Positions 392 through 41,298 of a stretch of 64,000 nt of DNA are shown piece after piece (the first letter of the stretch is position 1; every line of letters starts with the position of its first letter). The notes below the pieces were generated by a model, which saw only the letters and a program-made list of their open reading frames with translations, was not told the DNA's origin and did no database searches. The translations under genes and the position numbers were made by a program. This stretch comes from an uncultured Bacteroidales bacterium (GTDB taxonomy: Bacteria; Bacteroidota; Bacteroidia; Bacteroidales; FEN-979). The stretch is from assembly GCA_903828645.1 (NCBI GenBank), contig CAIKNA010000071.1:1286-65285 (forward strand), read 5' to 3'.

Positions 392-527
392 AAAAATGCA
401 AAATGCAAAATGCAAAATGCAAAGTGCAAAATAAAAATGCAAAATGCAAAATGCAAAATGGTAAATGATAAATCTCCGAAATCGTAAATCGTAAATCGTA
501 AATCGTAAATCGTAAATCGTAAATTTC
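392..527. repeat. tandem heptad array: (AAAATGC)n with two phase slips, then (AAATCGT)x6
   Basis: The T of TGC/TCG recurs at 397, 404, 411, 418, 425, then 438...466, then 482, 489, 496, 503, 510, 517. The array fills almost the whole pyrK-stop (529) to pyrD-start (375) spacer. Confidence 0.95.
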
Positions 528-528
528 C

Positions 529-1308
529 TCATCTCCAGGGCAGTCTTTTAATATTAAAAACCGGTCCTTCAACGCATACCCGTTCGTTTCCCTTGTCGGT
601 TGGCGTGATGCAGCATAGACACACACCAAAACCGCAGGCCATGGTGTTTTCGAGTGATACTTCACAATCAGTTTTATGCATCCGTGCGATTTTTGCAACG
701 GCTTTCATCATGGCATCCGGGCCACAGCAATAAATTTTTTTAAATTCAAGCCGTTCGCGCTGGAACACAGAATGGTCAACCACCAGCCCTTTTTCTCCTT
801 CGGTGCCGTCGTCGGTCATGACCAGTACTTTGCCGAAAGCCGAATAGGTTTCAATTTCAGAAACCTCTTCACTTGTGCGAAATCCCAAAAGGATGGTCGG
901 CCGGATGTTGTGCTGGCTGAGAAATTGAGCCATGAACAACAGGGGAGCAACACCGCATCCACCGCCAACAAGGAGAACATCTTTGGTGAAAGGCAGTGAA
1001 AAGGAATTTCCAAGGGGATAGATGAGGTTGAGATGATCGCCGGTTTGCAATTCCGAAAGGTGACGTGTTCCGGGTCCTTTGATCTGGATAAGCAGGCGAA
1101 GGGTGTTTTTTTTGTAATCGACCGAATGAATGGAAAACGGGCGGCGAAGAAATGTCGAAGGAGAATCTTCAACCCGCGCCTGGACAAACTGACCGGGCAG
1201 GATCAACGGGAATTTTTCGGGGGCCAGCAATTCAAGAACAACATGTCGCTTATTCAAACGGTTGACCTCAGTCACCCTTAAATCCTGGACAATTTTTTTC
1301 AACTCCAT
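529..1308 (-). CDS. pyrK: dihydroorotate dehydrogenase electron-transfer subunit (FAD / 2Fe-2S)
   Basis: Ferredoxin-reductase-like fold, with a C-terminal Cys cluster ACGFGVCLCC. I moved the start to MELKK (complement of 1306-1308) because the 307-aa track ORF overlaps the upstream gene. Confidence 0.85.
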   Translation of the reverse strand: MELKKIVQDLRVTEVNRLNKRHVVLELLAPEKFPLILPGQFVQARVEDSPSTFLRRPFSIHSVDYKKNTLRLLIQIKGPGTRHLSELQTGDHLNLIYPLGNSFSLPFTKDVLLVGGGCGVAPLLFMAQFLSQHNIRPTILLGFRTSEEVSEIETYSAFGKVLVMTDDGTEGEKGLVVDHSVFQRERLEFKKIYCCGPDAMMKAVAKIARMHKTDCEVSLENTMACGFGVCLCCITPTDKGNERVCVEGPVFNIKRLPWR

Positions 1309-1360
1309 GGATGTCCTGAATTTAGTCCGTTTGGTTGTCTTAAATCCGGAACTCCCTTCA

Positions 1361-1825
1361 TTATTCGGTTTCCCTCGGGCTATCTGCTGATGCTTCAGTT
1401 TCCGGAGCGGATCCGGTCTCCCCGGGTTCCTTTGCCTCTTCGGTGAAATCAAGAAGATCCTGCCGGACCAGTGAGTTGTACCAGCTTATCATCTTTTTGA
1501 TATCAGAAACATATACGCGGTCCTGGTCGAATTCCGGAACCATTTCAAGGAAAAAATTCTTCAGCGTTTTGTTGTCCGATTTGGGATCGATGGCAGATTT
1601 GCCAGCTAACTTTTCGTGAAAAGATTTGAATACTTCTTTCAGGGACAGGTCGTCGCCGGTTGTGAATACGCTAATCTCCTCGAGTGAACTCATCTTTTCA
1701 TGTGCGAAGGCCGGGAAACGCTTATTATCATTGAGTGACTCAACAATTACCGCATTTTTTGTCTGTGAAACTACTTTAAATAACCCGTTTTTTCCTGCAA
1801 TTGATAAGATCTTACTTAAATCCAT
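1361..1825 (-). CDS. conserved Bacteroidota hypothetical protein (DUF5606-like, recalled from memory only)
   Basis: Clean 154-aa ORF with an acidic C-terminal tail. A TATCTTTG box lies 17 nt upstream of the ATG. Confidence 0.6.
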   Translation of the reverse strand: MDLSKILSIAGKNGLFKVVSQTKNAVIVESLNDNKRFPAFAHEKMSSLEEISVFTTGDDLSLKEVFKSFHEKLAGKSAIDPKSDNKTLKNFFLEMVPEFDQDRVYVSDIKKMISWYNSLVRQDLLDFTEEAKEPGETGSAPETEASADSPRETE

Positions 1826-1842
1826 GGTCTGATAGTTTTTTG

Positions 1843-1850
1843 CAAAGATA
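1843..1850 (-). promoter_or_regulatory. Bacteroidota -7 box candidate TATCTTTG
   Basis: The complement of caaagata matches the TAnnTTTG consensus. Located 17 nt upstream of the ATG at 1825. Confidence 0.4.
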
Positions 1851-1870
1851 TAAAGAAATTAAGATATCTG

Positions 1871-1912
1871 TCACGCATCACGCATCATGTGTCACGTGTC
1901 ACGTATCACGAT
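1871..1912. repeat. tandem heptad array (TCACGNN)x6
   Basis: TCA recurs at 1871, 1878, 1885, 1892, 1899 and 1906. On the minus strand the unit is CGTGAYR, and the TGA stop of the 1899..2786 gene is one of these units. Confidence 0.9.
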
Positions 1913-2786
1913 TTCGCCTTACAATCCTGTAATTCCTGTATTCCCCGACCCGCCATCCTGTTTTCTTTTCGATAAAATGAAGAAAGACTGATTTTAACGA
2001 ATGTTTGTTATTTAAACGATCAGGGGTGAATTCCCAGTTACACCGTGCAATGCGTTCGCTCATAACCCGGGGGTGCGAAGCAGTAAACGGTGACAAAAAG
2101 TCTATCCCGGAATAATCGAAGGTGTCAGATTTTGGTACGCTTTTTTCGATCCACCGGTCTGAATGCCAGTATCTGTGAAATGTTTGCAGTTTGGCCTGCT
2201 GAGCCTGCGGGGGCTTTACCCATCCATAGTGATAAACAAAGGCGTCAACCTGCGCGACCAGCAACTTCTTTCCATTCTTTCTGAAACCCTGGGCGTCGAG
2301 AAAGGAACGGATTTGCCTGTCGTTGCGGATCACTCTTACTTCCCGCCGGTACCATTTGCGGGAGTCGCCCACGTACTGGTAAGAACCCCAGAAATGGCTG
2401 TAACTGAAAAGCAGTCCTTCTACCTTCGGGTATGATGCCCATTTTTCCATGGCAGCCCTGATTTCAGGCAGGTATTTCTCATGAATCACCTCATCGGCCT
2501 GGATGTAAAAAGCCCAGGTGCTGTCGGGTGAAATGGCATCAAAGGCTTTGTTGGTCTCCAGCGCAAGTACTTTTCCGCCTTCACGCAGTGAATCGTCCCA
2601 CGTGGTATCGATGATCCTGATTTTAGGGTCTCCGATGGAGAGGACCAGGTTCCTCGTATCATCATCAGATTTGCCGATGGCCACAACAAATTCGTCGCAA
2701 AGAGGCAATATCGAACGGATCGATTCCACCACGGGATAGTCGTATTTGATGGCATTGCGCACAATGGTAAACCCGGAGACTTTCAT
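1899..2786 (-). CDS. glycosyltransferase (GT2-like)
   Basis: MKVSGFTIVRNAIKYDYPVVESI...DEFVVAIGKSDDDT resembles GT2-type enzymes. The start at MKVSG is preferred over the track start at 2822. Confidence 0.6.
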   Translation of the reverse strand: MKVSGFTIVRNAIKYDYPVVESIRSILPLCDEFVVAIGKSDDDTRNLVLSIGDPKIRIIDTTWDDSLREGGKVLALETNKAFDAISPDSTWAFYIQADEVIHEKYLPEIRAAMEKWASYPKVEGLLFSYSHFWGSYQYVGDSRKWYRREVRVIRNDRQIRSFLDAQGFRKNGKKLLVAQVDAFVYHYGWVKPPQAQQAKLQTFHRYWHSDRWIEKSVPKSDTFDYSGIDFLSPFTASHPRVMSERIARCNWEFTPDRLNNKHSLKSVFLHFIEKKTGWRVGEYRNYRIVRRNRDT

Positions 2787-2845
2787 TGGTGTTTGGAATC
2801 GGAACGCAATATTAAGAAACATTCTTCCATCAAAAAATACTAATT

Positions 2846-3469
2846 TTGAATTTTAAAACATATGTGATAAACAGCCTTGTCAAATATATTTTCGACCGTT
2901 TGGTGGCAATGGCATCCCTGGTAATGCTTCTGCCGGTGTTTGCCCTGATTGCAATGGGGATTAAGTCATCCTCTCCGGGACCCCTGTTTTTCAGACAAAA
3001 GCGGGTGGGTAAGGACGGGAAAATCTTTGTCATTATTAAATTCCGTACCATGATTGCCAATGATGGCAGCAATACGGTTACGGTAGTCAACGACCGCAGG
3101 ATCACCCCGTTCGGGGCATTTCTCCGCAAATGGAAATTGGATGAACTTCCCGAACTTATCAACATCCTGGCGGGGGAAATGAGTTTTGTGGGGCCCAGGC
3201 CGGATGTTCCGGGATATGCCGACCAGCTTCGGGGCGACGACCGGAAAATCCTGGCGCTGCGCCCCGGCATCACGGGACCGGCATCACTGAAGTATTACAA
3301 TGAGGAAGAGATCCTCGCAGGAGTTGAAAATCCGAAGGATTACAACGACAAGGTAATTTTCCCGGACAAGGTGAGAATAAACCTGAAATACCTCGAAAGG
3401 TATTCTTTGCTTGAGGATATGAAAATAATTTTCTACACAATCATAAGAAAAAAGGACGATGAATACTAA
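2846..3469 (+). CDS. undecaprenyl-phosphate sugar phosphotransferase (small PglC/WbaP-C-type bacterial sugar transferase)
   Basis: One N-terminal TM helix, then SPGPLFFRQKRVGKDGKIFVIIKFRTM and RPGITGP motifs. No in-frame ATG precedes the conserved N-terminus, so the start is TTG 2846 or GTG 2864. Confidence 0.8.
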   Translation: MNFKTYVINSLVKYIFDRLVAMASLVMLLPVFALIAMGIKSSSPGPLFFRQKRVGKDGKIFVIIKFRTMIANDGSNTVTVVNDRRITPFGAFLRKWKLDELPELINILAGEMSFVGPRPDVPGYADQLRGDDRKILALRPGITGPASLKYYNEEEILAGVENPKDYNDKVIFPDKVRINLKYLERYSLLEDMKIIFYTIIRKKDDEY

Positions 3470-4589
3470 GATATGGTTATCGCCGCCCCATATGAGCGGG
3501 CTGGAGGAAAAATATGTCAGGGAGGCTTTCGAGTCAAACTGGATTGCCCCGCTCGGGCCAAATGTAGATGGATTTGAGCGGGAATTGTCACGATACCTGG
3601 ATGGCCGTCACATTGCCGTGCTTGGTTCGGGAACTGCTGCGATCCACCTGGCGTTAATTCTTTTGGGCGTAACCCGGGGAGATGAGGTCATTTCATCCGA
3701 TTTTACATTTACCGCCACGGTCAACCCGATCGTTTATCAGGGAGCAACACCGGTATTTGTTGACAGTGAGATGCAAACCTGGAATATAGACCCGGAACTT
3801 CTTGAAACGGCGATCGTCGACCGGATGAAAAACCATAAAAAGCCAAAGGCGATCATTTTTGCCGATATCTATGGAATGCCTGCCAGGATGGAAGCGCTCC
3901 TTGCAATCTCGCTCAAATATGATATCCCGCTCATCGAAGATGCTGCGGAAGCCCTGGGCAGCAGGTATAAAGAACAGCATTGCGGGACTTTTGGTGAAAT
4001 GGGGATCCTGTCGTTCAATGGCAATAAGATCATCACGACCTCCGGGGGAGGAGCCCTGGTTGCCACGAAGGAAAATTTTACAACAAAAGCGAAGTTCTTA
4101 GCCTCACAGGCCAAAGAGAATACCCTGCATTTTGAGCATCACGAAATAGGATACAATTACAGGATGAGCAATGTCCTTGCAGGGATCGGCCGCGGGCAAC
4201 TGGAGGTCATTGAAGAGCGTGTGGCCGCGCACCGCCACAACTATCGCCTCTACCGCGAATTGTTGTCGGATATCCGGGGTTTGATTTTTCAATCAGAACC
4301 GGATGATCACTATTTTTCAAACTTCTGGCTTACTTCAATGATTGTAAATGAGGAGGAAGCACATTTTACCTCCCAGTCGATCATCGGGATACTGGGAGAA
4401 GACAACATCGATTCCAGGCCGCTGATGAAACCTATGCACATGCAGGAGGTGTTCAAAGATCATCCTGCTTACCTGAACGGCAATTCGGAATTTCTCTATC
4501 AAAACGGATTGTGCCTGCCTTCGGGATCAAACCTGCGGGAGGAGGATATCGCCAGGATCGTGGAAGGGATCAGGAAGGTGAGCAAATAG
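3459..4589 (+). CDS. DegT/DnrJ/EryC1/StrS-family sugar aminotransferase (PglE-like)
   Basis: Family-typical N-terminus IWLSPPHMSG.E and a PLP-lysine region SFNGNKIITTSGGGAL. It overlaps the upstream transferase by 11 nt. Confidence 0.85.
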   Translation: MNTKIWLSPPHMSGLEEKYVREAFESNWIAPLGPNVDGFERELSRYLDGRHIAVLGSGTAAIHLALILLGVTRGDEVISSDFTFTATVNPIVYQGATPVFVDSEMQTWNIDPELLETAIVDRMKNHKKPKAIIFADIYGMPARMEALLAISLKYDIPLIEDAAEALGSRYKEQHCGTFGEMGILSFNGNKIITTSGGGALVATKENFTTKAKFLASQAKENTLHFEHHEIGYNYRMSNVLAGIGRGQLEVIEERVAAHRHNYRLYRELLSDIRGLIFQSEPDDHYFSNFWLTSMIVNEEEAHFTSQSIIGILGEDNIDSRPLMKPMHMQEVFKDHPAYLNGNSEFLYQNGLCLPSGSNLREEDIARIVEGIRKVSK

Positions 4590-4630
4590 AAATATTACAC
4601 GGCGGACTTGGTTCCAATTTTCCGGACGAG

Positions 4631-5659
4631 TCACCGGGTGGTCGTAATTCCACTTTTTTGTTTTTTGAAAAGGAGAAACCGAAATATGCCCACAAGGTAT
4701 CCCCATCCGTAAGAAAGGTGTAGAAAAAAGAAGATCCATGGCAGGTAGAGGAAGAGTTTAACTCGTTTTTCCTGCCTTACGATCCTGGCCGAGAAAATCA
4801 AATCCCCCAGAATGTAAAGTGCCGACCCGGTAAAAAGTAGCCAGCGCGAAAATGCAAAAAAGAAAGAACCTGCTCCCGAAAAGACCAAAAAGAGCAGGAA
4901 AACCAGGGGTACAAGATGGCGGCTCACTACAGGGCGCCCTACCTTCAGTGAAACCAGCGGATTATACAACCCATACTGGTAGTGCATCCTGAACAGTTGT
5001 TTAGTCGAACTCCTCGTAAAATAATTGATCGTCACAAAAGGGATCAGGTATATGGAACCGCCACTGTTAATAAGCCTCACATTGAATTCATAATCCTGGT
5101 TTCGCAACAACTCTTCATCGAAAAATCCTATTTTATCAAATACCGATCTTTTATAGCATCCGAACGGAACCGTGTCCACCTTGCATATCTCCCTGACACC
5201 TGTTCTGTATTTTGCATTGCCTATGCCGAAAGGCGAAGAAAGCACATTGGAGATGGCCAGTGACCGGATTGAGTCGTCTGCGGGCATCGTTTGTAAAAAA
5301 GCGCCAACATTATCGGCATTGAGTTCTGTAAGGTATTTTACAAGCACCGGAACATAATTCGCAGGATAAAATGTGTGCGCCCCGAGGATCATGATCACCT
5401 CCCCGCGTGACAACCTTATGCCGCTGTTCAGGGCGAAGGGGACATATCGCTCCCTGTTGTGTACAATGCGGATGAAAGATTTTTGTTCAGAATACTGCCG
5501 GATGATTTCAAGTGTTCTGTCGGTACTTCCTCCATCCATGACAAGCACCTCCATGAGATCATGGGGGTAATCCTGGGATATGAGGTTTTCAAGGAGCGTT
5601 CCGATGAACTTTTCTTCATTGAAACATGGAATGATGAGTGATACAAAAGGTTGTGCCAT
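4631..5659 (-). CDS. glycosyltransferase family 2 with C-terminal membrane segments
   Basis: VSLIIPCFNEE and VMDGGSTDRT motifs, with a hydrophobic C-terminal third. Confidence 0.8.
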   Translation of the reverse strand: MAQPFVSLIIPCFNEEKFIGTLLENLISQDYPHDLMEVLVMDGGSTDRTLEIIRQYSEQKSFIRIVHNRERYVPFALNSGIRLSRGEVIMILGAHTFYPANYVPVLVKYLTELNADNVGAFLQTMPADDSIRSLAISNVLSSPFGIGNAKYRTGVREICKVDTVPFGCYKRSVFDKIGFFDEELLRNQDYEFNVRLINSGGSIYLIPFVTINYFTRSSTKQLFRMHYQYGLYNPLVSLKVGRPVVSRHLVPLVFLLFLVFSGAGSFFFAFSRWLLFTGSALYILGDLIFSARIVRQEKRVKLFLYLPWIFFFLHLSYGWGYLVGIFRFLLFKKQKSGITTTR

Positions 5660-5783
5660 GCTTAAATATGCAGGATGGAAATTTTTCAGTAAAATTAGAA
5701 TTAAATTTTAATTTCAGCCCGGGTATGCAGCTTCGCGGCGTTCCCGGCAGAATCTTTTATTGACATTTTTCACCGGATTTTCA

Positions 5784-5791
5784 TATTTTTG
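5784..5791 (+). promoter_or_regulatory. -7 box candidate TATTTTTG
   Basis: Matches TAnnTTTG and lies ~60 nt upstream of the ATG at 5853. Confidence 0.35.
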
Positions 5792-5852
5792 GCTCTTATT
5801 TGCTTCCACAGGTTGTGTGTGTCAAATTTCAGGCACAATCGTTCAGTATGAC

Positions 5853-6866: not shown

Positions 6867-6884
6867 GCAAATACAGGAGATTCT

Positions 6885-8059: not shown

Positions 8060-8079
8060 TGCTGACAGGAATGACCTGG

Positions 8080-9351
8080 TCATTTTACTGGTTTTACTGA
8101 ATTAACGATCCAAAGTATTACACCGGTTGAATAGAGGCTGAGCGTTCCGGATAAAAGGATCAATGTGGTGGTTGCGTTTTTAAAAAAAAGACCACCCAGG
8201 CATAACTGGATGACCATCAGCATGGCACCTGCCAGGGAAATATAAAACATCATACGGGTCTTCCCGATGATGATCGGGGTATAAGAGATGGTTGCACGGA
8301 TAAAATCAAAAAACAACCAGGGGGCCAGGATTCTTGCAAAAACCCCCGCTTCATGCCAGGCCGAACCAAACACCACTCCGATTAACCACGGACCGATGGT
8401 CAGCATGAGGATCAATGGAATGAAAGCCACGATTGCAGCCATTTTGATCGTTTTCCTGATCAATCCTGCAAGGTTTCCATCGTTCAGGTAATGTTCCGAT
8501 GCATCCTTGTAAAAAACCTGGGCAAAAGAAGTCCCGATCAGCGTAAGCGGAGCCTGAAGGAGTCGCTGGGAAAGAGAATACCACCCCACGATTTCAACAG
8601 GAAAGAAAGCCTTTAACAGGAAAATAATCCCATAAATCTGGACCAGTTCGACCAGGATTTGAGGGGTATTGGCCAAGGGAAGATCCTTGTACTTCCTGGC
8701 AAGGGATTTTTGCGAGGTGGAATCGAAGAAACGCAGGCTTCCCCTGTATCTCATGAGAATCCCGGTTATAAAAAAGAGGTTGAAAACAAGCAGTCCCAGG
8801 AAATTTCCAAGCAATAATCCCCACACCCCGATGCCAATAAATCCCAGGTACAGGGTAAGCATGTTGTTGCCTGCTGCGTTTATCACTTTTGCCATTGCGA
8901 GGGTCCGGTATTCCTTTTGCCTGTTATACCATTGCTGGAAAACGTTCCCCGCTGCCACCATGAAAATCATCACCGGGAGTAAGTACATCCATTGCCTGTA
9001 AACCGGGTTGACAACCATTTTGGGCAGAAAAATAAAATCGGAAAGAAAGACCAGGATAGTGAGAAAAAGGGACAAGGCAAAAGCGATCAGCAGGGAAACA
9101 AAAGCGACATTCACCGAATCTTTTTCTTCTTTTGCGGGAACAACCGCCATTTCATAGCGTAAAGTGGCCATGAGTCCAAGCCCTCCGACAATGGAAATAA
9201 AGAAAGTGAAAATACCAACATCCGAAGGCGTATATAACCTGGTAATCAATGGCGTAACAAGAAATGAGATCGCCTGCGCGACAGCTGTTCCTGCGACCAG
9301 TTTTGCTGAATTTTTTATAAAATCGGATCTCCCGAAAAAGACTTTACGCAT
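8080..9351 (-). CDS. oligosaccharide flippase (Wzx / MOP superfamily)
   Basis: 423 aa and polytopic, with roughly 12 hydrophobic segments. The N-terminus KNSAKLVAGTAVAQAISFLVTPLITRLYTP is typical of polysaccharide-biosynthesis flippases. Confidence 0.75.
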   Translation of the reverse strand: MRKVFFGRSDFIKNSAKLVAGTAVAQAISFLVTPLITRLYTPSDVGIFTFFISIVGGLGLMATLRYEMAVVPAKEEKDSVNVAFVSLLIAFALSLFLTILVFLSDFIFLPKMVVNPVYRQWMYLLPVMIFMVAAGNVFQQWYNRQKEYRTLAMAKVINAAGNNMLTLYLGFIGIGVWGLLLGNFLGLLVFNLFFITGILMRYRGSLRFFDSTSQKSLARKYKDLPLANTPQILVELVQIYGIIFLLKAFFPVEIVGWYSLSQRLLQAPLTLIGTSFAQVFYKDASEHYLNDGNLAGLIRKTIKMAAIVAFIPLILMLTIGPWLIGVVFGSAWHEAGVFARILAPWLFFDFIRATISYTPIIIGKTRMMFYISLAGAMLMVIQLCLGGLFFKNATTTLILLSGTLSLYSTGVILWIVNSVKPVK

Positions 9352-9376
9352 TTGACCGATACTGCTTTTTTTGATA

Positions 9377-10189: not shown

Positions 10190-10941
10190 GATCGGGTTGT
10201 CATTTCAATGGTTTTGGCAATTTTGATCGTGGAGTTGAATGCGGCGATGAACGACCACATGAACCCCGGATAACCATCAAGGAACCCACCTTTGATGAAA
10301 AAATAGATCAGGAAAGTAACCGGGAATTTGATCACGACCCACAGTTTGTGATAACGCTTCCCGTTTTGCAAGTTTTGCCGGGCGCCAAGCGTGGTATAAT
10401 TGTTCGATTTGTCAAATTGATTTTGAAGGTCGCTGTAAGAATAATGAATGATCCTGCCTTTCAGCCTGCCGGCGCGGCCTTTCAGGGTGAACTTCTCATG
10501 AACCTCGGTAGGATCAAATGCCCCGGATTTCCTGTTAAAAAGCCTGGGTTTATATTCGTTTCCAACCCCGGTATGATGCATGATCTTCCCCAGGTAAAAC
10601 AGGAAGAATGGAATTTCATACCCGCAAAATGGGATCGTTTCCTGTTGAAGCAGGGCAGCTATTTCATTTTTCAGCCCTTCTGTAACCACCTCGTCAGCAT
10701 CCAGCACCAGGATCCAGTCGTTCTTAGCTTCGTTGACCGCAAACTGTTTCTGATCTGCAAATCCCCTGAACTCCCTGCGTATGACCCGGCATCCGTGGGA
10801 TTCGCAAATCTCCGCTGTTTTGTCAGTCGAAAACGAATCAACAACAAGGATCTCGCCTGCAAGGCCCCCGACGGCTTCCAGGCACCTGCCAATGTTCCGT
10901 TCTTCCTGGTAGGTAATGATGGTTATGGTTAATCCTGTCAT
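10186..10941 (-). CDS. glycosyltransferase family 2
   Basis: LTITIITYQEERNI and VVDSFSTDKT, LDADE motifs. The ATG at the complement of 10939-10941 is preferred over the TTG track start. Confidence 0.75.
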   Translation of the reverse strand: MTGLTITIITYQEERNIGRCLEAVGGLAGEILVVDSFSTDKTAEICESHGCRVIRREFRGFADQKQFAVNEAKNDWILVLDADEVVTEGLKNEIAALLQQETIPFCGYEIPFFLFYLGKIMHHTGVGNEYKPRLFNRKSGAFDPTEVHEKFTLKGRAGRLKGRIIHYSYSDLQNQFDKSNNYTTLGARQNLQNGKRYHKLWVVIKFPVTFLIYFFIKGGFLDGYPGFMWSFIAAFNSTIKIAKTIEMTTRS

Positions 10942-15327: not shown

Positions 15328-15376
15328 AAAATTAAAAATTAAAAATTACTTTACTTCACGTGTCACGTTTTCACTT
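15328..15376. repeat. composite heptad array (AAAATTA)x3 + CTTTACT + (TCACGTN)x2-3
   Basis: Read directly from the sequence. It fills the 52-nt spacer between the hydrolase stop (15371-15373, inside a TCAC unit) and the purB start (15318). Confidence 0.85.
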
Positions 15377-16813: not shown

Positions 16814-17020
16814 AGAAGATTTATGTATTAGGCGATTTCTGCTTTTAGGTTTAAACCTTTTTGTTGAAGTCTCAGGTAACAAACAGACAAAGTAACAAAG
16901 AAAATAGGAAAAAATGATGCTCATCCCTGTAGAAAGGCGAAAAGAAAAACTTTTCTGCCCTAAAATAATTTTGTATCATTTTTTACTTATTTTTGATAAC
17001 CGCAGGAAGGGAATAATTAC

Positions 17021-17069
17021 AAAATGCAAAATGCAAAATGCAAAATGCAAAATGCAAATTCAAAATTCA
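17021..17069. repeat. tandem heptad array (AAAATGC)x5 + (AAATTCA)x2
   Basis: Exact 7-nt register from 17021. It ends 28 nt before the ATG of the MetY-like gene (17097). Confidence 0.95.
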
Positions 17070-17096
17070 AAAGGTAGGATCAGGATGTAAAACACA

Positions 17097-18587
17097 ATGG
17101 ATATGGATGAGAGCGGAATGAATCGCTATTTTGAGGCTGCAGCACGTGCAGATCAGTGGCACAGGGAGTATAGGGAGCAGATGAAACAATGCCGGTTTGA
17201 TACCATTGCCACGCATGGCATCTATTCCATGCAGGAGGCGCTCGATTTCAACCAGGGGGCCATCATCGAACCGGTTTACATGTCAACTTCACAGGCCTTC
17301 CGCGATTCGGATGAAATGGAAGCCGCCCTGGGCTACAAGATACCTACATGGTGCTACTCGCGCATTGCCAACCCGACCATTTATTACCTGGAGGGAGTGC
17401 TTGCCTTGCTGGAAGGCTATGGGTCGGAAGTTGAAACATCCTGCATAGCAACCTCATCCGGTATGTCGGCCATTCAAAGTGCCGTTGACGCTTTCCTGGT
17501 GATTGATCCGAAAAACCCCGGCGCACCGATGAATTTTGTCGCCACCACCCAGGTTTACGGGGGAACCTACCAGCAGTTTTCCATGCGGAAAGACCTTGAA
17601 CATGGCATCGAATGGCGTAAGGTTGTTCACTCAACCGACCTTTCGGAATGGGAATCGCTGATCGATGAAAATACCCGGTTTCTTTACGGGGAGATGCCCA
17701 GCAACCCATGTTTATCCTTTTTCGATCTTGCAAGGGTTGCCGCACTGGCTCATAAATATGGCATTCCCCTCATCATCGATTCAACGGTGGCCACACCTGC
17801 GCTGCTGAGACCTATCCAACATGGTGCAGACATCGTCATCCAATCGGTTACAAAATCACTGGCGACCAGCGGGTTTGGAATTTCTGGGGCGGTAATCTCC
17901 CGCAGGAACCTCGTTTCGAAAATTGACAACCCCGAAATGAAGGCCGATTTCGCCAATTATCTCAAATTGTTGCCCAACCGTGACAACGGCCCGAATATCT
18001 CGCCCATGAATGCCGTGCTGGCGCTGAACGACATAAGGACTATCCGCATGCGCATGGACCACATGAGCAGAAGCACCATGAAAGTTGCACAATTCCTCTC
18101 ACAGCATAAAAATGTCGAAAGGGTCGAATACCTCGGATTGAGCAACCACCCGCTGCATGACCTTGCCTCTGAATATTTATACCTGGTTGATGCTGAATAT
18201 GATGAGCAGTATGGCGCACCGGTGAACCGGTACGGCCACCTGATGTCGTTCCTTGTCAGGGGAGATGCCGGGCAAACCCGAGATGTGTTTGATGCATTCA
18301 CCCGGATCTGGAGAGCAACCGACCTTGGCAGGATCAAATCCGTTGCGACCATCCCGGCCATCTCCACCCATTCGCAACAAGGGGAGGAAGGCCGCAAACT
18401 TGCAGGAATCCCCTCAAACCTGATCCGGCTTTGTATTGGTGTCGAACATCCCGACGATATTATCAAAGACCTCGACCAGGCTTTATCTGTGTTGGATGGT
18501 AAAAAACTGAAGGTGACATCACCCGAATTTTCGGCAGGAGGTTCCTCTTCGGCCAGGATGGGAATTAATCAGATGCTGAAATATTGA
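17097..18587 (+). CDS. Cys/Met-metabolism PLP-dependent enzyme, long divergent MetY/O-acetylhomoserine-sulfhydrylase-like form
   Basis: YSRIANPT, VYGGTY and DSTVATPALLRP motifs, plus the PLP-lysine region SVTKSLATSGFG. At 496 aa it is longer than typical family members. Confidence 0.7.
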   Translation: MDMDESGMNRYFEAAARADQWHREYREQMKQCRFDTIATHGIYSMQEALDFNQGAIIEPVYMSTSQAFRDSDEMEAALGYKIPTWCYSRIANPTIYYLEGVLALLEGYGSEVETSCIATSSGMSAIQSAVDAFLVIDPKNPGAPMNFVATTQVYGGTYQQFSMRKDLEHGIEWRKVVHSTDLSEWESLIDENTRFLYGEMPSNPCLSFFDLARVAALAHKYGIPLIIDSTVATPALLRPIQHGADIVIQSVTKSLATSGFGISGAVISRRNLVSKIDNPEMKADFANYLKLLPNRDNGPNISPMNAVLALNDIRTIRMRMDHMSRSTMKVAQFLSQHKNVERVEYLGLSNHPLHDLASEYLYLVDAEYDEQYGAPVNRYGHLMSFLVRGDAGQTRDVFDAFTRIWRATDLGRIKSVATIPAISTHSQQGEEGRKLAGIPSNLIRLCIGVEHPDDIIKDLDQALSVLDGKKLKVTSPEFSAGGSSSARMGINQMLKY

Positions 18588-19962: not shown

Positions 19963-20005
19963 TAAAAATTCAAAGTGCAACGTGTAAAATCAAAGTGCAA
20001 ATAAA
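19963..20005. repeat. degenerate A-tract short-period repeat (AAATTCA/AAGTGCA/AAATCAA...)
   Basis: TCAAAGTGCAA occurs twice (19970-19980 and 19990-20000). It fills the thrC-thrH spacer. The register is imperfect. Confidence 0.5.
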
Positions 20006-20016
20006 CCAAAACAACA

Positions 20017-20695: not shown

Positions 20696-20724
20696 CCCCC
20701 CCCAATCGTAAATCGTAAATCGTA
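20696..20724. repeat. C8 homopolymer followed by (AATCGTA)x3
   Basis: CCCCCCCC at 20696-20703, then exact heptads at 20704, 20711 and 20718. Located 20 nt upstream of the ATG at 20745. Confidence 0.9.
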
Positions 20725-20744
20725 AATCCAAAACCCTACTTCCC

Positions 20745-35724: not shown

Positions 35725-35786
35725 GGGTTTTCAGTATCCTGTATAAAGATAACACAACTGTTTATAAAGGTTGCCCCGGATGTTAA

Positions 35787-35827
35787 AAAAAAGAGGCTGC
35801 CGGAAACATTCCGGCAGCCTCTTTTTT
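35787..35827 (-). terminator. rho-independent terminator after hppA (hairpin flanked by A-run and T-run, potentially bidirectional)
   Basis: Perfect 13-bp stem, AAGAGGCTGCCGG (35791-35803) paired with CCGGCAGCCTCTT (35811-35823), with a 7-nt loop. It has TTTT on the plus side and T-runs on the minus side. Confidence 0.85.
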
Positions 35828-35842
35828 GCAAGTAGTTGAAAG

Positions 35843-38278
35843 TTAGTCTCTGATACGCATTTTGTAAAATGAACGGTAAACAAAATATAGGGCAACGGCA
35901 AAAAAAGCAAGTCCGATGTAGTGGGCGACCGGCCGGAAATGCACAGACAGGGCAATTTCCATGGCCAGTAAGCCAAACAGGGTAGTAAACTTGATGATGG
36001 GATTCATGGCAACCGATGAGGTGTCTTTGAAAGGATCACCAACGGTATCGCCAACAACGGAAGCGGCATGAAGTTCTGTTCCCTTTTCTTTCATATCAAC
36101 CTCAATAACCTTTTTTGCATTGTCCCAGGCGCCACCGGCGTTGGCCATGAAAATGGCCTGATACAAGCCGAAGAAGGCAATCGAGATCAGGTAACTCACG
36201 AAAAGCGATACCGGCAAGGCATAATTCAGTTTTTCTGTGCCCGTCATCGATTCAGTCAACCCGGTAGGGGAGGACAAAAACGCAAAGGCCAGTGCAAAGG
36301 AGAAAATTGCTATGAAAATGTTTAGCATGCCCTTCTGTGCATAAACAGTGCAGATTTGAACCACCTCTTTCGATTTGGCCGTGTCGGCTTTTTTGGGAGC
36401 GTTGGGGTCGAGGTTGATATTCTTCTTAATGTAAGCAACCGCGCGGCTTGCTCCTGTGGTAACTGCCTGGATGGATGCCCCGCTGAACCAGTAAATGACA
36501 GAGCCGCCTAACAGAAATCCTAAAATGGTGTAAGGATTTAAAAGCGTAAGGATCTGTTCAGGCTCGATGCCAAGCGATTTTTTGATCACCAGGATGAGCG
36601 AAAAGATCATCGTTGTGGCACCCACAACCGCGGTGCCGATCAGAACGGGTTTTGCGGTGGCTTTGAAGGTGTTTCCGGCTCCGTCATTCGCTTCCAGGTA
36701 ATGTTTGGATTTTTCGAAATCAGGTTTGAAACCGAAATCCCGCTGTATTTCAGCGCTTATCCCCGGAATTTCCTCAATCAGCGACAGTTCGTAAATGGAT
36801 TGGGCGTTGTCGGTCACAGGTCCGTAACTGTCGACCGCGATGGTAACCGGGCCCATGCCAAGCATGCCGAAGGCCACCAGGCCGAAAGCAAAAATGGATG
36901 GATAGATCATGAAGTTGATCAACCCGAAAGTGCTTGCATAGTATGCAATGAACATGAGCAGGAAAAAGACCATGCCCTGCCAGAAAGCGCTGAAGTTACC
37001 CGCAACAAGTCCCGAAAGGATGTTGAGCGATGCCCCGCCTTCCTGGGAGGCAACTACGACCTCTTTTACATGCGTCGATTTGGGACTCGTGAAAAGCTTT
37101 GTGAATTCGGGGATCAATGCTGCTCCAAGTGTTCCGGCACTGATGATGACTGACAGGATGATCCACAGGTCGCTTGGAAGACCGTTGATCTGAATGTCTT
37201 TTATTGTCAGAAAACTGATTGCGAAAGTAACGACGATGGATAAGATCGAAGTTATCCATACCAGGGAGGTCAAAGGTTTTTCGAAATCAAGATCATCAAC
37301 CTTGTCGTATTTTGCCTTGCTGATAGCGCCATTGATCCAGAAGGATACAATGGAAGTGATGATCATGAAGATGCGCATCACGAAAATCCAGGTGAGCAGT
37401 TGAACCTGAACGGCAGGGTCTTTAACTGCAAGTACGATAAATGAAATGAGGGCCACACCTGTTACACCATAGGTTTCAAAACCGTCGGCAGTGGGGCCAA
37501 CGCTGTCGCCGGCATTGTCGCCTACACAATCGGCAATGGTTCCCGGGTTTCTCGGATCATCTTCGCCGATTTTGAAGATCACTTTCATCAGGTCCGAACC
37601 AATATCAGCGATTTTGGTGAAAATACCACCCGCAATTCTCAATGCGGAGGCGCCTAAGGATTCACCGATGGCAAACCCGATAAAACTTGCCCCTGCATAC
37701 TCTCCGGGAACAAACATCAGGATGATCAGCATCATGATGAGCTCCAGCGAGATCAGTACAACGCCGATGCTCATTCCCGCGTTTAAAGGGATGTTAAGCA
37801 GTTTGATAGGTTTCCGCTCCAGGGAGGCAAAAGCCATCCGCGCATTTGCCAGGGTGTTCATCCTGATTCCAAACCATGCTACACTGTAGGAGCCCAGGAT
37901 TCCGATTATGGTCCAACCCAGGATCATCAATACCCCACCGATTCCGAAGTTGGCATCTGAGAGCCATCCAAAATAAAATGCCACGGCAGAGCCGATAAAT
38001 ACGAAAAGAATTACTAAAAATTTCCCCTGCTGAATGAGATACGTCTTCGATGTTTCGAAAATAACCTGTGCAACATCCAGCATGGATTTATGTGCACCGA
38101 TTTTTTTAACTTTAAGAAATTGGAATAATCCAAACATAAAACCTGCGAAAGTGATCAAAAAACCCCAATAAAGGATGGACTGATCTCTAATCCCTGCAGG
38201 AATTACAAGATTCGCTTCGCCTGCCATTGTGAAAAATGGCAATAGCAAAGCCATAAGAAATGCACTGGCTCTTTTCAT
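35843..38278 (-). CDS. hppA: membrane-integral H+/Na+-translocating pyrophosphatase
   Basis: GGIFTKIADIGSDL, DCVGDNAGD and VGDTVGDPFKDT motifs in a polytopic protein. Confidence 0.9.
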   Translation of the reverse strand: MKRASAFLMALLLPFFTMAGEANLVIPAGIRDQSILYWGFLITFAGFMFGLFQFLKVKKIGAHKSMLDVAQVIFETSKTYLIQQGKFLVILFVFIGSAVAFYFGWLSDANFGIGGVLMILGWTIIGILGSYSVAWFGIRMNTLANARMAFASLERKPIKLLNIPLNAGMSIGVVLISLELIMMLIILMFVPGEYAGASFIGFAIGESLGASALRIAGGIFTKIADIGSDLMKVIFKIGEDDPRNPGTIADCVGDNAGDSVGPTADGFETYGVTGVALISFIVLAVKDPAVQVQLLTWIFVMRIFMIITSIVSFWINGAISKAKYDKVDDLDFEKPLTSLVWITSILSIVVTFAISFLTIKDIQINGLPSDLWIILSVIISAGTLGAALIPEFTKLFTSPKSTHVKEVVVASQEGGASLNILSGLVAGNFSAFWQGMVFFLLMFIAYYASTFGLINFMIYPSIFAFGLVAFGMLGMGPVTIAVDSYGPVTDNAQSIYELSLIEEIPGISAEIQRDFGFKPDFEKSKHYLEANDGAGNTFKATAKPVLIGTAVVGATTMIFSLILVIKKSLGIEPEQILTLLNPYTILGFLLGGSVIYWFSGASIQAVTTGASRAVAYIKKNINLDPNAPKKADTAKSKEVVQICTVYAQKGMLNIFIAIFSFALAFAFLSSPTGLTESMTGTEKLNYALPVSLFVSYLISIAFFGLYQAIFMANAGGAWDNAKKVIEVDMKEKGTELHAASVVGDTVGDPFKDTSSVAMNPIIKFTTLFGLLAMEIALSVHFRPVAHYIGLAFFAVALYFVYRSFYKMRIRD

Positions 38279-38308
38279 ATTTACCTATTTAATTATTTGA
38301 ACTGTCTA

Positions 38309-38316
38309 CAAAAATA
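38309..38316 (-). promoter_or_regulatory. -7 box candidate TATTTTTG upstream of hppA
   Basis: Complement of caaaaata, ~30 nt upstream of the ATG at 38278. Confidence 0.4.
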
Positions 38317-38377
38317 GAACAAATTTTATGAAAACATAAATTTTTGAACAACTTTTGTCTGTTAGGGAAATTTCCCG

Positions 38378-38385
38378 TAGGTTTG
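38378..38385 (+). promoter_or_regulatory. -7 box candidate TAGGTTTG upstream of the bifunctional nuclease gene
   Basis: Matches TAnnTTTG, 25 nt upstream of the ATG at 38411. Confidence 0.35.
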
Positions 38386-38410
38386 TATTTGGTAAAACCC
38401 GCAGGACCCG

Positions 38411-38995
38411 ATGGAAAAAATACGACTTGATATCATTGGAATGTCATACAGCCAATCCCAAAGCGGGGCGTATGCACTTATCCTCGGGGAGCGCGACGGG
38501 AACCGGCGTTTGCCGATAATCATCGGAGGATTTGAAGCACAATCCATCGCCATCGAGCTTGAAAAAATCAGGACCCCGCGACCGCTCACCCACGACTTGT
38601 TTAAAGCCTTCGCCGATGCCTACAAAATTGAAATTTCCGAAGTGGTCATCAGCAAATTCAGCGAGGGGGTTTTTTATGCCAAACTGGTATGCACCGACGG
38701 GGAGTCTGTTCAGGAGATCGATTCCCGCACCTCCGATGCCATTGCCCTTGCCTTGCGTTTTGCCTGCCCGGTCTTTACCTATGAAAGCATTATGTCTGCC
38801 GCGGGCATCCTGATGGAAGAGGAGGCTGAACTGCTTAAACAGGATGAGCCTGCCCGGGAAGAGTATCAAAAGGAGATGGTTTCCTATTCAGATACTTCGC
38901 TTACAGAACTCATGGAGATGCTGCATGCCGCCATCGAAAATGAAGAGTACGAAAAAGCTTCCAAAATCAGGGATGAATTGAACAAGCGAAAATAA
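38411..38995 (+). CDS. bifunctional nuclease family protein (DUF151/BFN) with C-terminal UVR motif
   Basis: RRLPIIIG..EAQSIA and RPLTHDL motifs, with a C-terminal EEYEKASKIRDEL UVR-like helix. Confidence 0.75.
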   Translation: MEKIRLDIIGMSYSQSQSGAYALILGERDGNRRLPIIIGGFEAQSIAIELEKIRTPRPLTHDLFKAFADAYKIEISEVVISKFSEGVFYAKLVCTDGESVQEIDSRTSDAIALALRFACPVFTYESIMSAAGILMEEEAELLKQDEPAREEYQKEMVSYSDTSLTELMEMLHAAIENEEYEKASKIRDELNKRK

Positions 38996-39037
38996 ATTTC
39001 CAGAACCTGACTTATTAACACTTAAAAGAAAATCCTG

Positions 39038-40297
39038 ATGGGAATAAAACTTCGTTTAATACTGATGAATTTTTTCCAGTTCTTTGTATGGGGAGCCTGG
39101 CTCATAACTATTGGAACCTATTGTTTTAATGCTAAAGGGTGGACAGGAGCTCAGTTTGGAGCAATCTTTTCAACACTTGCAATTGCTTCAATCTTTATGC
39201 CGGCGCTTACCGGAATTATTGCCGACAAATGGATAAATACCGAAAAACTCTATGGAACGCTGCACATTTTATATGGATGCGTGTTGTTCTTTGTACCACA
39301 AGTCAATGACCCGGATACCCTGTACTATGTGATATTATTGGCAATGATTTTTTATATGCCAACCATATCGCTTTCTAACTCCATTTCCTATTCAATATTA
39401 AAAAACAATAATTTTGAAGTTGTGAAGGCATACCCCCCAATTCGGGTTTGGGGAACCATCGGCTTCATTATCGCCATGTGGTGTACCAATTTATCCGGCA
39501 GTAAGGCTAATGCCAATCAGTTCATTATTGGAGCAGTTGCAGCTATTGTTTTGGGGATCTATTCATTTACTTTACCAAAATGTCTCCCCCAGAAATCAAT
39601 ATCTAAAGATGCTTCCATTATTGAACAATTGGGGTTAAATGCTTTTAAACTTTTTTTGAATTACAAAATGGCGTTATTCTTTATTTTCGCCATGTTCCTG
39701 GGTGCTGCATTGCAGCTAACCAATATGTATGGCGATTCTTTCCTTGATGATTTCAGGAATGTTCCGGAATACGCCGAATCATTTGTTGTAAAATATTCTA
39801 CGATTATAATGTCGATTTCCCAGATGTCCGAGACCCTTTTTATTCTCACCATACCTTTTTTCCTGCGGCGCTTTGGAATTAAGAAAGTTATGCTTTTCAG
39901 TATGATCGCCTGGGTGCTTCGGTTTGGATTATTCTCTTTTGGAAATCCTGCCGGCGGTTTATGGATGATAATTTTGTCTTGTATTGTTTATGGTATGGCT
40001 TTCGATTTTTTCAACATCTCTGGTTCCTTATTTGTTGAAAGCACTACCGATTCTAAAATAAGATCGAGTGCACAAGGTCTTTTTATGATGATGACCAATG
40101 GTTTTGGCGCATACTCAGGCAGTAAAATAAGCGGATTCATTATTGATAAATTTTATACACACGCTCAGGGTAAAGACTGGCATGGAATCTGGCTTGCTTT
40201 TGCAATCTATGCCTTGATTGTGGCAGTTGCGTTTGCCATCCTCTTTAAACATAAACACGACCCCAAAGACTTTTCTTCTTCAGCCATTCAGCATTAA
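39038..40297 (+). CDS. nucleoside:H+ symporter family MFS permease (NupG/XapB-like)
   Basis: A 12-TM MFS protein whose N-terminus LRLILMNFFQFFVWGAWLITIG is typical of the NupG family. Confidence 0.75.
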   Translation: MGIKLRLILMNFFQFFVWGAWLITIGTYCFNAKGWTGAQFGAIFSTLAIASIFMPALTGIIADKWINTEKLYGTLHILYGCVLFFVPQVNDPDTLYYVILLAMIFYMPTISLSNSISYSILKNNNFEVVKAYPPIRVWGTIGFIIAMWCTNLSGSKANANQFIIGAVAAIVLGIYSFTLPKCLPQKSISKDASIIEQLGLNAFKLFLNYKMALFFIFAMFLGAALQLTNMYGDSFLDDFRNVPEYAESFVVKYSTIIMSISQMSETLFILTIPFFLRRFGIKKVMLFSMIAWVLRFGLFSFGNPAGGLWMIILSCIVYGMAFDFFNISGSLFVESTTDSKIRSSAQGLFMMMTNGFGAYSGSKISGFIIDKFYTHAQGKDWHGIWLAFAIYALIVAVAFAILFKHKHDPKDFSSSAIQH

Positions 40298-40304
40298 ATT
40301 AATA

Positions 40305-40444
40305 TTTGCACTTTGACTGTGCACTTTGATTTTGCACTTTGACTTTGCACTTTGATTTTGCACTTTGACTTTGCACTTTGACTTTGCACTTTGACTTTGC
40401 ACTTTGACTTTGCATTTTGACTTTGCATTTTGCCCTTTGCATTT
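40305..40444. repeat. compound tandem array: nine 13-nt units (TTTGCAC+TTTGAY), then three heptads (TTTGCAT/TTTGCCC/TTTGCAT)
   Basis: GCAC/GCAT recurs at 40308, 40321, 40334, 40347, 40360, 40373, 40386, 40399, 40412 and 40425 (13-nt period), then at 40432 and 40439 (7-nt period). It fills the permease-thyA spacer. Confidence 0.95.
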
Positions 40445-40449
40445 AACAA

Positions 40450-41244
40450 ATGAAACAGTATCTTGATCTTCTTGATTTTGTCCTGAAAAACGGCATCCAA
40501 AAACCCGACCGCACCGGCACCGGCACGATCAGCGTTTTCGGATACCAGATGCGGTTCGACCTGCGAGAGAGTTTTCCGCTCCTAACCACCAAAAAATTGC
40601 ACCTCAGGTCGATCATCCATGAACTGCTTTGGTTTTTGCAGGGTTCAACCAACACCAGGTACCTTACGGATAACAAGGTAACCATCTGGAACGAATGGGC
40701 CGACAAGCAGGGAAACCTCGGCCCGGTATACGGGTATCAATGGCGCTCGTGGCCAAAGACCGATGGCTCGCATGTTGACCAGATCCGTCAGGTTGCTGAT
40801 TCAATCCTTCAGAATCCTGATTCACGCCGTCACATCGTTAGCGCATGGAATGTTGGGGACCTGGACAAAATGGCTCTGCCACCCTGTCACTTGCTTTTCC
40901 AGTTTTATGTGGCCAACGGCGAACTCTCCTGCCAGATGTACCAGCGCAGCTGCGACATCTTTCTGGGTGTGCCGTTCAACATCGCCTCTTATGCCCTGCT
41001 CACGTTGATGATGGCCCATGCAACTGGGCTCAAACCCGGGGAGTTCATCCATACACTGGGGGATGCGCACATTTACCTGAACCACCTCGACCAGGTACAA
41101 CTCCAGTTGTCACGCGAGCCATTGCCCCCACCGCAAATGAACCTGAACCCGGAGGTGAAAAACATTGACGACTTCCGCTTTGAGGATTTTCAACTGGTCA
41201 ACTACCAGTCGCACCCCCACATCAAGGGTGACATTGCAATCTGA
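40450..41244 (+). CDS. thyA: thymidylate synthase
   Basis: MKQYLDLL...DRTGTGT...catalytic LPPCH...; full-length 264 aa. Confidence 0.95.
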
Positions 41245-41256
41245 AAAATATTGTAA

Positions 41257-41298
41257 TTTTGCCATTTTACTTTTGCATTTTCCATTTTGCACTTTCCT
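41257..41298. repeat. T-tract short-period repeat (TTTTGCC ATTTTAC TTTTGCA TTTTCCA TTTTGCA CTTTCCT)
   Basis: T-runs start at 41257, 41265, 41271, 41278, 41285 and 41293 (spacing 6-8 nt). The array abuts the folA ATG at 41300. Confidence 0.8.

Follow-up and report, generated by a model that had tools for sequence, protein, structure and literature searches.

Heptamer tandem arrays in the intergenic spacers of an uncultured freshwater Bacteroidales lineage

We analyzed a stretch of 64,000 nt (the window) from an uncultured Bacteroidales bacterium (GenBank assembly GCA_903828645.1, contig CAIKNA010000071.1, positions 1,286 to 65,285 of the forward strand), whose intergenic spacers carry short tandem arrays built mostly from 7-nt units. 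The arrays were detected with Tandem Repeats Finder (TRF), and each locus was then inspected in the sequence. The window contains nine arrays of period 7 or 8 with at least three copies, compared to 0.18 expected from 100 dinucleotide-preserving shuffles. Seven arrays reach a TRF score of at least 40, compared to 0.01 per dinucleotide shuffle. All strong arrays are located within the approximately 6% of the sequence that lies outside open reading frames (ORFs). The only period-7 matches within ORFs (10695–10717 and 46316–46337) have scores of 30–32, which is the chance level. A preliminary description of the window, made from the sequence alone, had listed eight arrays and had regarded them as intergenic and far above chance. 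Both statements hold, and seven of the eight arrays are recovered by TRF. The remaining region (19963–20005) contains just two 15-nt copies that are 20 nt apart, and an array of three 9-nt units at 51958–51985 had been missed. For coordinates and units see Table 1.

Table 1. Tandem arrays and related repeats in the 64-kb window (positions in window numbering; TRF, Tandem Repeats Finder; Cys/Met-PLP, Cys/Met-type pyridoxal phosphate enzyme).
Feature	Position	Unit and copy number	Location	Detection
Array 1a	393–460	AAAATGC ×9.9 on the plus strand; GCATTTT on the pyrK-to-pyrD sense strand	pyrK–pyrD spacer	TRF
Array 1b	479–524	AAATCGT ×6.6 on the plus strand, antisense to pyrK/pyrD	pyrK–pyrD spacer	TRF
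Array 2	1869–1910	imperfect TCACGYR ×5.7, 84% matches	spacer between a Pfam-less ORF and a DUF5606 gene	TRF
Array 3	15328–15376	AAAATTA ×3 (15328–15348), then degenerate TCACGTG/TCACGTT units	hydrolase–purB spacer	TRF (15328–15348)
Array 4	17020–17072	CAAAATG ×7.7	divergent spacer, hydrolase and Cys/Met-PLP gene	TRF
Locus 5	19966–20000	two 15-nt copies, AAATTCAAAGTGCAA / AAAATCAAAGTGCAA, 20 nt apart	thrC–HAD spacer	
Array 6	20704–20728	AATCGTA ×3.6, sense orientation	HAD–Cys/Met-PLP spacer	TRF
Array 7	40305–40441	compound 13-mer TTTGCAC+TTTGAC ×10.5	nupG–thyA spacer	TRF
Array 8	41256–41297	imperfect ATTTTGC/ATTTTCC/ATTTTAC (ATTTTSC) ×6, 75% matches	thyA–folA spacer	TRF
Extra array	51958–51985	TTGCATTGT ×3.1, period 9 (9-mers TTGCATTGT / TTGCATAGT / TTGCATTGT)		TRF

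Pfam matches and public gene annotations agree with the gene contexts named earlier, i.e. pyrK–pyrD (with pyrD on the minus strand in the public annotations), hydrolase–purB, thrC–HAD (a HAD phosphatase) and thyA–folA. They also confirm the contexts nupG–thyA, HAD–Cys/Met-PLP gene, the divergent pair of a hydrolase and a Cys/Met-PLP gene, and the neighborhood of a 307-aa ORF and a DUF5606 gene. Degenerate units at 461–478 connect array 1a with array 1b. Array 2 overlaps the stop end of the 307-aa ORF (1899–2822, minus strand) by 12 nt. The complete 52-nt spacer between the α/β-hydrolase gene and purB is occupied by array 3. Arrays 7 and 8 likewise fill their spacers and end 8 nt from the ATG of thyA and 3 nt from the ATG of folA, respectively. 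Altogether, arrays 4, 6, 7 and 8 lie 3–24 nt upstream of start codons. The orientation is not uniform, as had been noted before: AAATCGT is antisense at pyrK–pyrD and in sense orientation at HAD–Cys/Met-PLP. Locus 5 is a degenerate remnant of the GCAAAGT family and no true array. A C8 homopolymer (20696–20703) directly precedes array 6 and has the same length in all five readable sequences (the window and strain contigs L090–L093; L numbers denote the loci and contigs used for comparison).

Sequences resembling the −7 promoter motif of Bacteroidota (TAnnTTTG) occur near several arrays without following a positional rule. One of them (1843–1850, minus strand) has array 2 upstream of it, two (16966 and 16988) lie upstream of array 4, and two are located inside array 8 (41254 and 41268). 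As array 4 is downstream of its two motifs, it is probably part of the 5' untranslated region (UTR) of the gene starting at 17097. The period-9 array follows a −7-like motif, TAAATTTG (51938–51945), at a distance of 13 nt and is itself followed, after approximately 27 nt, by an ATG at 52013; its 9-mers could be a regulator site or a further slippage array. Scans of the window found sigma-70 promoter-like and terminator-like sites in the spacers at chance level, and no Rfam family matched in the window.

The copy number of the arrays differs between strains by whole units. For this comparison, contigs from other lake metagenomes were recovered by exact-protein look-ups, and the proteins flanking the arrays are identical. 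Array 6 (AAATCGT, in front of the Cys/Met-PLP gene) has 3, 5 or 6 copies in spacers of 128, 142 and 149 nt. For array 1b, the ACGATTT block of the pyrK–pyrD spacer, the counts are 3 in L217, 6 in the window and 7 in L214. For the 13-mer array 7 upstream of thyA, 7.5 copies in L085 compare with 10.5 in the window. In the case of array 4, one strain contig is 7 nt longer, as judged from gene coordinates. Array 1a shows a point variant in L217. The imperfect arrays, in contrast, are invariant (array 2 in five, array 3 in four and array 8 in nine strain contigs). Variation of pure arrays together with invariance of imperfect ones is the classic purity dependence of slippage. The hypermutability of the arrays is effectively demonstrated by these comparisons, and the earlier suggestion of slippage-prone spacers that vary in copy number can be seen in them directly.

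One strain contig, L090, differs more strongly. Its thrC–HAD spacer (100–196, corresponding to 19963–20016 of the window) contains GCAAAGT/GCAAAAT units, then the reverse complement of these units and finally a T8 run. Together they form a perfect, terminator-like hairpin of 33 bp (−43.4 kcal/mol, z = −9.7). Since this hairpin is present in L090 and not in the window strain, the strains may differ in the co-transcription of thrC and the HAD gene. Inverted pairs of arrays with the same word, either within one spacer or flanking 0.1–1.5 kb, were also seen at L003:6389–6550, L005:21071–21134, L030:16441–16509 and L015:3496–3767 as well as in L098, L103, L133, L143 and L159; they would form long hairpins or cruciforms. 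In L103 the two inverted copies have 25 nt of left flank in common, which suggests an inverted duplication.

Several short-read contigs end in arrays. L086, L088 and L089 have their 5' ends in the thyA-upstream array and L216 has its 3' end in the pyrK–pyrD array; L092 and L093 behave similarly. Because contigs frequently end inside them, the arrays fragment short-read assemblies of this organism. Such ends are also what could be expected if the repeats had been made or collapsed by short-read assemblers. We consider an artefact of this kind practically negligible as an explanation. Identical arrays were found in independent assemblies that differ in sample, project and assembler (ENA ERZ273..., BUCK21, JGI 3300022555, 3300009175 and 3300025316), and long contigs have unique coding sequence on both sides of them. 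Arrays are also present in a 5.27-Mb single-chromosome metagenome-assembled genome (MAG; L030) and in relatives assembled by other groups. Of the 61 related loci, which come from many studies, 51 contain at least one array.

These 61 Bacteroidales-like loci (1.04 Mb) served as the set of relatives, in which intergenic arrays of at least three copies were counted. Judged from threonine synthase, the best relatives of the window (identity of 81% or less) are freshwater Bacteroidales MAGs labeled Prolixibacteraceae, Draconibacterium or Lentimicrobiaceae; the GTDB representatives searched do not include its own species. The census resulted in a very sharp period: 114 arrays have a period of 7 and 45 a period of 8, compared to none with period 5, two with period 6 and six with period 9. 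Among 20 loci from other phyla (0.28 Mb) there were only seven intergenic arrays of period 7 or 8. The window has 1.41 arrays per 10 kb, a little less than the average of 1.81 for the clade; extrapolated to a 5-Mb genome, a density of 1.4–1.8 corresponds to several hundred arrays. A Shine-Dalgarno (SD)-like core precedes 12% of the ORFs in the Bacteroidales loci, compared to 61% in Cloacimonadota loci from the same scan. The −7 motif is strongly enriched on the sense strand of the Bacteroidales spacers (84 versus 14). We found no prior report of such arrays in Bacteroidales in the literature; as far as could be found, neither this lineage (uncultured freshwater Bacteroidales near Prolixibacteraceae/Draconibacterium) nor the density has been reported before.

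The words that make up the arrays are very diverse. The 189 arrays of the relatives are made from 132 different units, 92 of them heptamers and 40 octamers, which are often rich in G+C (e.g. GGTGACA, CATCCCG and ACAGGGTG), and there are at least four unrelated word families within 41 kb of the window genome. Copy numbers range from 3 to 22. A shared A3–4/T3–4 tract had been proposed as a common property. It is a feature of the words of this genome but not of the class, as an A3 or T3 run is found in 32% of the 189 units from relatives and in 40% of random spacer heptamers. In many relatives, octamer arrays of up to 16 copies stand beside heptamers (among L001–L055, e.g. L001:7006–7120, L003:6389–6493 and 8246–8373, L012:5441–5551). 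The window contains no strong octamer array, and mixed-taxon contigs with AAATCGT arrays contain 6 octamer versus 190 heptamer arrays. The 8-nt class seems to be specific to certain Bacteroidales lineages.

The arrays fill all types of spacers. Occupancy is 18% for tandem (84 of 457), 18% for divergent (21 of 118) and 23% for convergent spacers (23 of 101), and only six of 176 arrays are located far within a long ORF. The median length is 133 nt for spacers with an array, 79.5 nt after removal of the array and 80 nt for array-free spacers. As the remainder has the length of an array-free spacer, the arrays are additions to otherwise ordinary spacers. Their G+C content is 0.39, compared to 0.376 for spacers. 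The median distance to the start codon is 36 nt, and many arrays end 0–10 nt from it. T-rich and A-rich units on the sense strand are about equally frequent (52:49), without a purine skew. For AAATCGT, an apparent sense bias of 10:1 was dismissed. It arose because the thrC-linked loci are not independent; when (AAATCGT)3 was used to retrieve 80 metagenome loci unrelated to each other, the orientation was 18 sense to 17 antisense.

Orthologous spacers show a turnover of arrays. The arrays of the window are mostly absent from the corresponding spacers of its closest relatives. In the comparison of orthologous spacers proposed in the preliminary description, the CAAAATG array of the window was absent from most of its orthologous spacers. 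Across 52–57 relatives, at least 31 different units occupy the spacer downstream of thrC, which measures 10–30 nt when empty and 42–193 nt when occupied, and hardly any two genomes use the same word there. Where the upstream Cys/Met-PLP gene and thrC are adjacent, their coupled junction (−1 to 4 nt) never contains an array. In-register heptamers that flank arrays are degenerate copies of the unit (Hamming distance of 4.3 versus approximately 5.2 for random heptamers), and variant sub-arrays adjoin one another (AAATCGC beside AAATCGT). In L021, L022 and L026 the array begins 9–11 nt inside the 3' end of thrC, i.e. within its last codons. The flanks of 87 AAATCGT arrays have no junction sequence in common (information content of at most 0.3 bit per position). 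From the degenerate in-register flanks, the variant sub-arrays, the lack of a common junction and the starts inside thrC we infer growth and decay in place by slippage. Carriage by a mobile element was rejected, as no conserved junctions surround the arrays. Seeding from an abundant single-copy motif was rejected as well: single copies of AAATCGT are at the median of permuted words and those of GCAAAAT are merely high.

Based on these data we propose the following course of events. The arrays would be long simple sequence repeats (LSSRs) of heptamers, and in relatives also of octamers, i.e. hypermutable microsatellites that originate in place from local spacer sequence. Slipped-strand mispairing during replication, whose footprint is seen in the strain comparison, would let them grow, shrink and decay. 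They would persist only where insertions and deletions that are not multiples of three are harmless, which excludes coding sequence as well as junctions that are tightly coupled or dense in signals. The period of 7–8 nt would be a property of the replication and repair machinery of the lineage, as proposed by Mrazek. Most arrays would then be near-neutral, and their main role would be extra length on an otherwise ordinary spacer. Local side effects would occur, such as a −7-like motif within an array or a hairpin resulting from an inverted duplication, but the class would have no dedicated common function. Birth, growth and decay of near-neutral spacer filler through slippage is the best-supported mechanism, and we regard it as moderately probable.

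A number of observations weigh against this explanation. Non-coding DNA should accept arrays of period 6 or 9 as readily as those of period 7, but only two and six were counted, compared to 114 heptamer and 45 octamer arrays. Identical units are found at non-orthologous positions of different genomes in 61 pairs, where 7.4 were expected from permuted units and 13.7 from random spacer k-mers. Between spacers of the same locus there are 14 such cases (0.6 and 1.3 expected, respectively). It had been suggested that the period and not the word is conserved; the period is very sharp indeed, but identical words recur 4–10 times above chance across unlinked spacers and genomes. AAATCGT arrays are present in contigs of 34–67% G+C (L094–L173, from soil, peat, lake and gut samples). 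The Bacteroidota −7 signal is lacking in those with at least 50% G+C (3:3) and present in those below 50% (13:1). The contigs with at least 50% G+C still seem to be SD-poor (8–17%), although the start calls are crude and this evidence is weak. In addition, occupancy is very uneven among 17 conserved gene pairs of L001–L073 (chi-square p = 3.5e-10). The hot junctions are thrC–HAD (56%, 31 units), lpd to rmlC (50%, 15 units) and the convergent pair of a hydrolase and a type IX secretion system (T9SS)-type protein (44%). Their empty spacers measure only 12–40 nt and each has taken up 6–31 different words, while several conserved spacers of 131–176 nt have an occupancy of 0%. The existence of hot and cold junctions can be explained by purifying selection on spacers dense in signals. 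The sharp period and the sharing of words are long-standing features of this repeat class.

A further point of this kind concerns stop codons. A unit that carries a stop triplet provides stops in all three frames. In co-directional spacers of Bacteroidales, 45% of the units contain a stop triplet on the sense strand and 21% on the antisense strand (p = 0.0005; p = 0.006 for distinct units), whereas heptamers from ordinary spacers show no such asymmetry (0.379 and 0.386). The bias was not reproduced in an independent mixed-taxon set (46% versus 44%). We rejected the idea that the arrays serve to provide stops in three frames: on the sense strand the frequency is that of the null, the antisense strand alone is depleted, there is no excess in convergent spacers and the independent set is without the effect.

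Shared words and hot junctions would also be expected if lineage-specific proteins binding double-stranded DNA (nucleoid-associated or regulator-like) read the heptamer and octamer words and the arrays were kept to recruit them. A duplex-binding site would work in either orientation, a sharp period would fit, and heptad arrays bound by regulators are known (10.1101/2021.05.14.444153; PMC5930380). The number of unrelated word families, both within 41 kb of one genome and among the arrays of relatives, however, is difficult to reconcile with such sites. Copy number is unconstrained and varies between strains beside housekeeping genes, arrays are as frequent in convergent spacers as in those with promoters, orthologous arrays disappear or give way to other words, and no candidate protein was identified. 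Binding arrays of this type are therefore unlikely in our view. More generally, the arrays could be the footprint of an active, word-aware process at the DNA level that is common to SD-poor lineages, either through heptamer- or octamer-reading proteins with genome-wide cis-elements or through a repeat-generating activity that places an identical word at sites not linked to each other. If true, this would jointly explain the sharp period of 7 or 8, the words shared within as well as between genomes and even across lineages of 34–67% G+C, the junctions refilled with different words and the stop-triplet bias; we give it a small chance. Contingency or tuning loci, for which the 7-bp repeats of hmw1A and the AGAT repeats of uspA2 are examples, would use changes in copy number within promoters or 5' UTRs to adjust downstream expression stochastically. 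Co-existing strains do differ in copy number, arrays 4, 6, 7 and 8 are close to start codons, array 8 contains −7-like motifs and one strain variant creates a hairpin with a U-run between thrC and the HAD gene. The genes concerned, however, are core biosynthetic (pyrD, purB, thyA, folA and thrC) and do not belong to surface structures or host interaction. Convergent spacers are equally affected, the position relative to promoter motifs is inconsistent and the density of 1.4–1.8 per 10 kb would require hundreds of contingency loci in each genome. All this makes a tuning role quite improbable.

Transcribed arrays could finally act as RNA in a lineage without Shine-Dalgarno pairing, as MacGregor supposed for TAACTGA. 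They would either offer an unstructured platform for standby or re-initiation or bind RNA-binding proteins of the OB-fold (oligonucleotide/oligosaccharide-binding) type such as S1 or Csp, with about one heptamer per domain. The SD-poor lineage with its Bacteroidota-type promoters, the arrays that end a few nucleotides from a start codon and the sense-strand excess of stop triplets in the Bacteroidales set are in line with this idea, and CspB binds heptamers according to work cited in a passage of PMC4679880. Against it stand the occurrence of the same word in both orientations (also within the window genome), the absence of an A/T or purine skew on the sense strand, the filled convergent spacers and the stop asymmetry that is missing from the independent set. 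Folding gives no sign of selection either. Arrays built from real and from permuted units do not differ (mean percentile 0.498, p = 0.9), and real arrays fold about as well as length-matched segments of ordinary spacers (−0.132 versus −0.140 kcal/mol/nt). Selection for unstructured RNA was rejected on these grounds, and the unstructured A/U-rich platform put forward in the preliminary description is not supported; we regard a role at the RNA level as very unlikely. Arrays of TTTG (−33) elements that tune promoters, also suggested there, did not stand up. The two arrays with TTTG on the sense strand reach to within 8 and 3 nt of a start codon, TTTG is absent from most words of relatives, convergent spacers are filled as often and no positional rule relates arrays to −7-like motifs.

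The preliminary description knew of no element class that matches. The arrays do belong to a described one, the heptamer LSSRs, found here in a new lineage, and are no new kind of element; LSSRs, the heptanucleotides of Calothrix PCC 7601 and the TAACTGA repeats are all representatives of this class. Passages in later papers credit Mrazek et al. (2007) with the definition of LSSRs (units of 5–11 nt) and describe heptamers as the most abundant long class (PMC4679880, PMC4692102, PMC11868660). According to the same kind of passages, slippage was proposed as their origin and the length of approximately 7 nt as that of the segment interacting with DNA polymerase (PMC4679880, PMC4692102). The arrays of the window resemble LSSRs in their head-to-tail units (7 nt, or 13 = 7+6) with 3–10.5 copies, and 7-nt units lie within the unit-length limit of 1–11 nt. 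Their length exceeds the expectation from composition, as measured with a dinucleotide-shuffle null and not with the cutoff model of the LSSR definition itself. Units that are not multiples of three are non-coding, heptamers are modal and the phylogenetic distribution is patchy. They differ in the lineage, the high density of 1.4–1.8 per 10 kb and the strong second class of octamers in many relatives.

TAACTGA arrays that directly precede start codons were described by MacGregor (2015) for Beggiatoaceae, Cyanobacteria and five Bacteroidetes (PMC4679880). The same study found other heptamer arrays in spacers of Gramella and Aequorivita, shorter and repeat-free spacers in relatives, and suggested binding of S1, Csp or CsrA (PMC4679880). 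The present arrays are similar in being intergenic heptamers of which some end a few nucleotides from a start (arrays 7 and 8), in having the same word in distant lineages without an evident transfer mechanism and in the shorter, repeat-free spacers of relatives with the same gene order. TAACTGA itself does not occur as a doublet or longer in the window or in the 160 scanned loci (L001–L080, L094–L173). Here, in contrast, many words coexist, there is no rule of forward orientation, the median start distance is 36 nt and 23% of the convergent spacers are occupied.

The cyanobacterial heptanucleotides were reportedly named short tandemly repeated repetitive (STRR) sequences by Mazel and co-workers in 1990; their words include CCCCAGT, TTGGTCA and CAACAGT, and their hosts are heterocystous cyanobacteria. 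In Calothrix PCC 7601 they are tandem heptanucleotides, as cited in a passage of PMC4692102. In Xanthomonas and Nostoc, Rehm et al. reported arrays of GGGAATC and GGGGAYT that vary in length between close relatives and include inverted pairs (PMC4692102). The arrays of the Bacteroidales lineage are likewise intergenic tandem heptamers with many copies per genome. As in STRR sequences and the repeats of Xanthomonas and Nostoc, they comprise a few lineage-specific word families, are often inside operons (compare pecE–pecF), vary in length and sequence between close relatives at one junction, and can form hairpins from inverted pairs. STRR words and G-rich words form no arrays in the window or the scanned loci. 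Given the absence of STRR words and a host from Bacteroidales, the arrays work like STRR sequences without being members. Their words have no G-quadruplex potential and occur in another phylum, in contrast to GGGAATC and GGGGAYT. A preprint on Nostoc found modest reporter effects on deletion of heptamer repeats (10.1101/2022.06.06.494920).

Heptads with an assigned function include the TTTTGAT heptads of the ctxAB promoter, which are used by H-NS and ToxT (10.1101/2021.05.14.444153), the 7-bp repeats that control phase variation of hmw1A in Haemophilus (PMC8262952) and the heptameric direct repeats bound by SARP regulators (PMC5930380). They share with the present arrays the 7-nt period and the position upstream of genes, and for ctxAB and hmw1A also copy numbers that vary between strains. 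These are, however, single loci with one regulator and one virulence or antibiotic gene, whereas the lineage described here has hundreds of loci, many words and any type of spacer. Apart from one TTTTGAT array of three copies in L012, the known heptamer words form no arrays in our data. Phase-variable simple sequence repeats of contingency loci have the strain-dependent copy number in common with the arrays, but not the genes: instead of surface, host-interaction or restriction-modification functions, the neighbors are pyrK/pyrD, purB, thrC, thyA, folA and Cys/Met-PLP enzymes. Clustered regularly interspaced short palindromic repeats (CRISPR), repetitive extragenic palindromes and bacterial interspersed mosaic elements (REP/BIME) and miniature inverted-repeat transposable elements (MITE) do not apply. 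The units are contiguous, the 87 AAATCGT arrays have no conserved flank and no Rfam family was found in the window.

Heptamer arrays have been on record since 1990 and were reported in 2007 to dominate among long microsatellites. The lineage offers a dense and clean natural data set for the question of their period and function, with hundreds of arrays per genome and two period classes (7 and 8) in relatives. Copy-number alleles are visible in public lake metagenomes, and some junctions have been refilled independently by dozens of words. In practical terms, the arrays can serve as high-resolution strain markers for uncultured Bacteroidales. They also break short-read metagenome assemblies and mislead gene callers into ORFs for repeat peptides. 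Public gene callers predict 'hypothetical proteins' of 58 or 66 aa through stop-free arrays, with a size set by the copy number (e.g. L221:1229–1405, which corresponds to approximately 16925–17090 of the window, and the window ORF 390–698 on the minus strand). Small proteins of this kind that read through arrays are almost certainly annotation artefacts.

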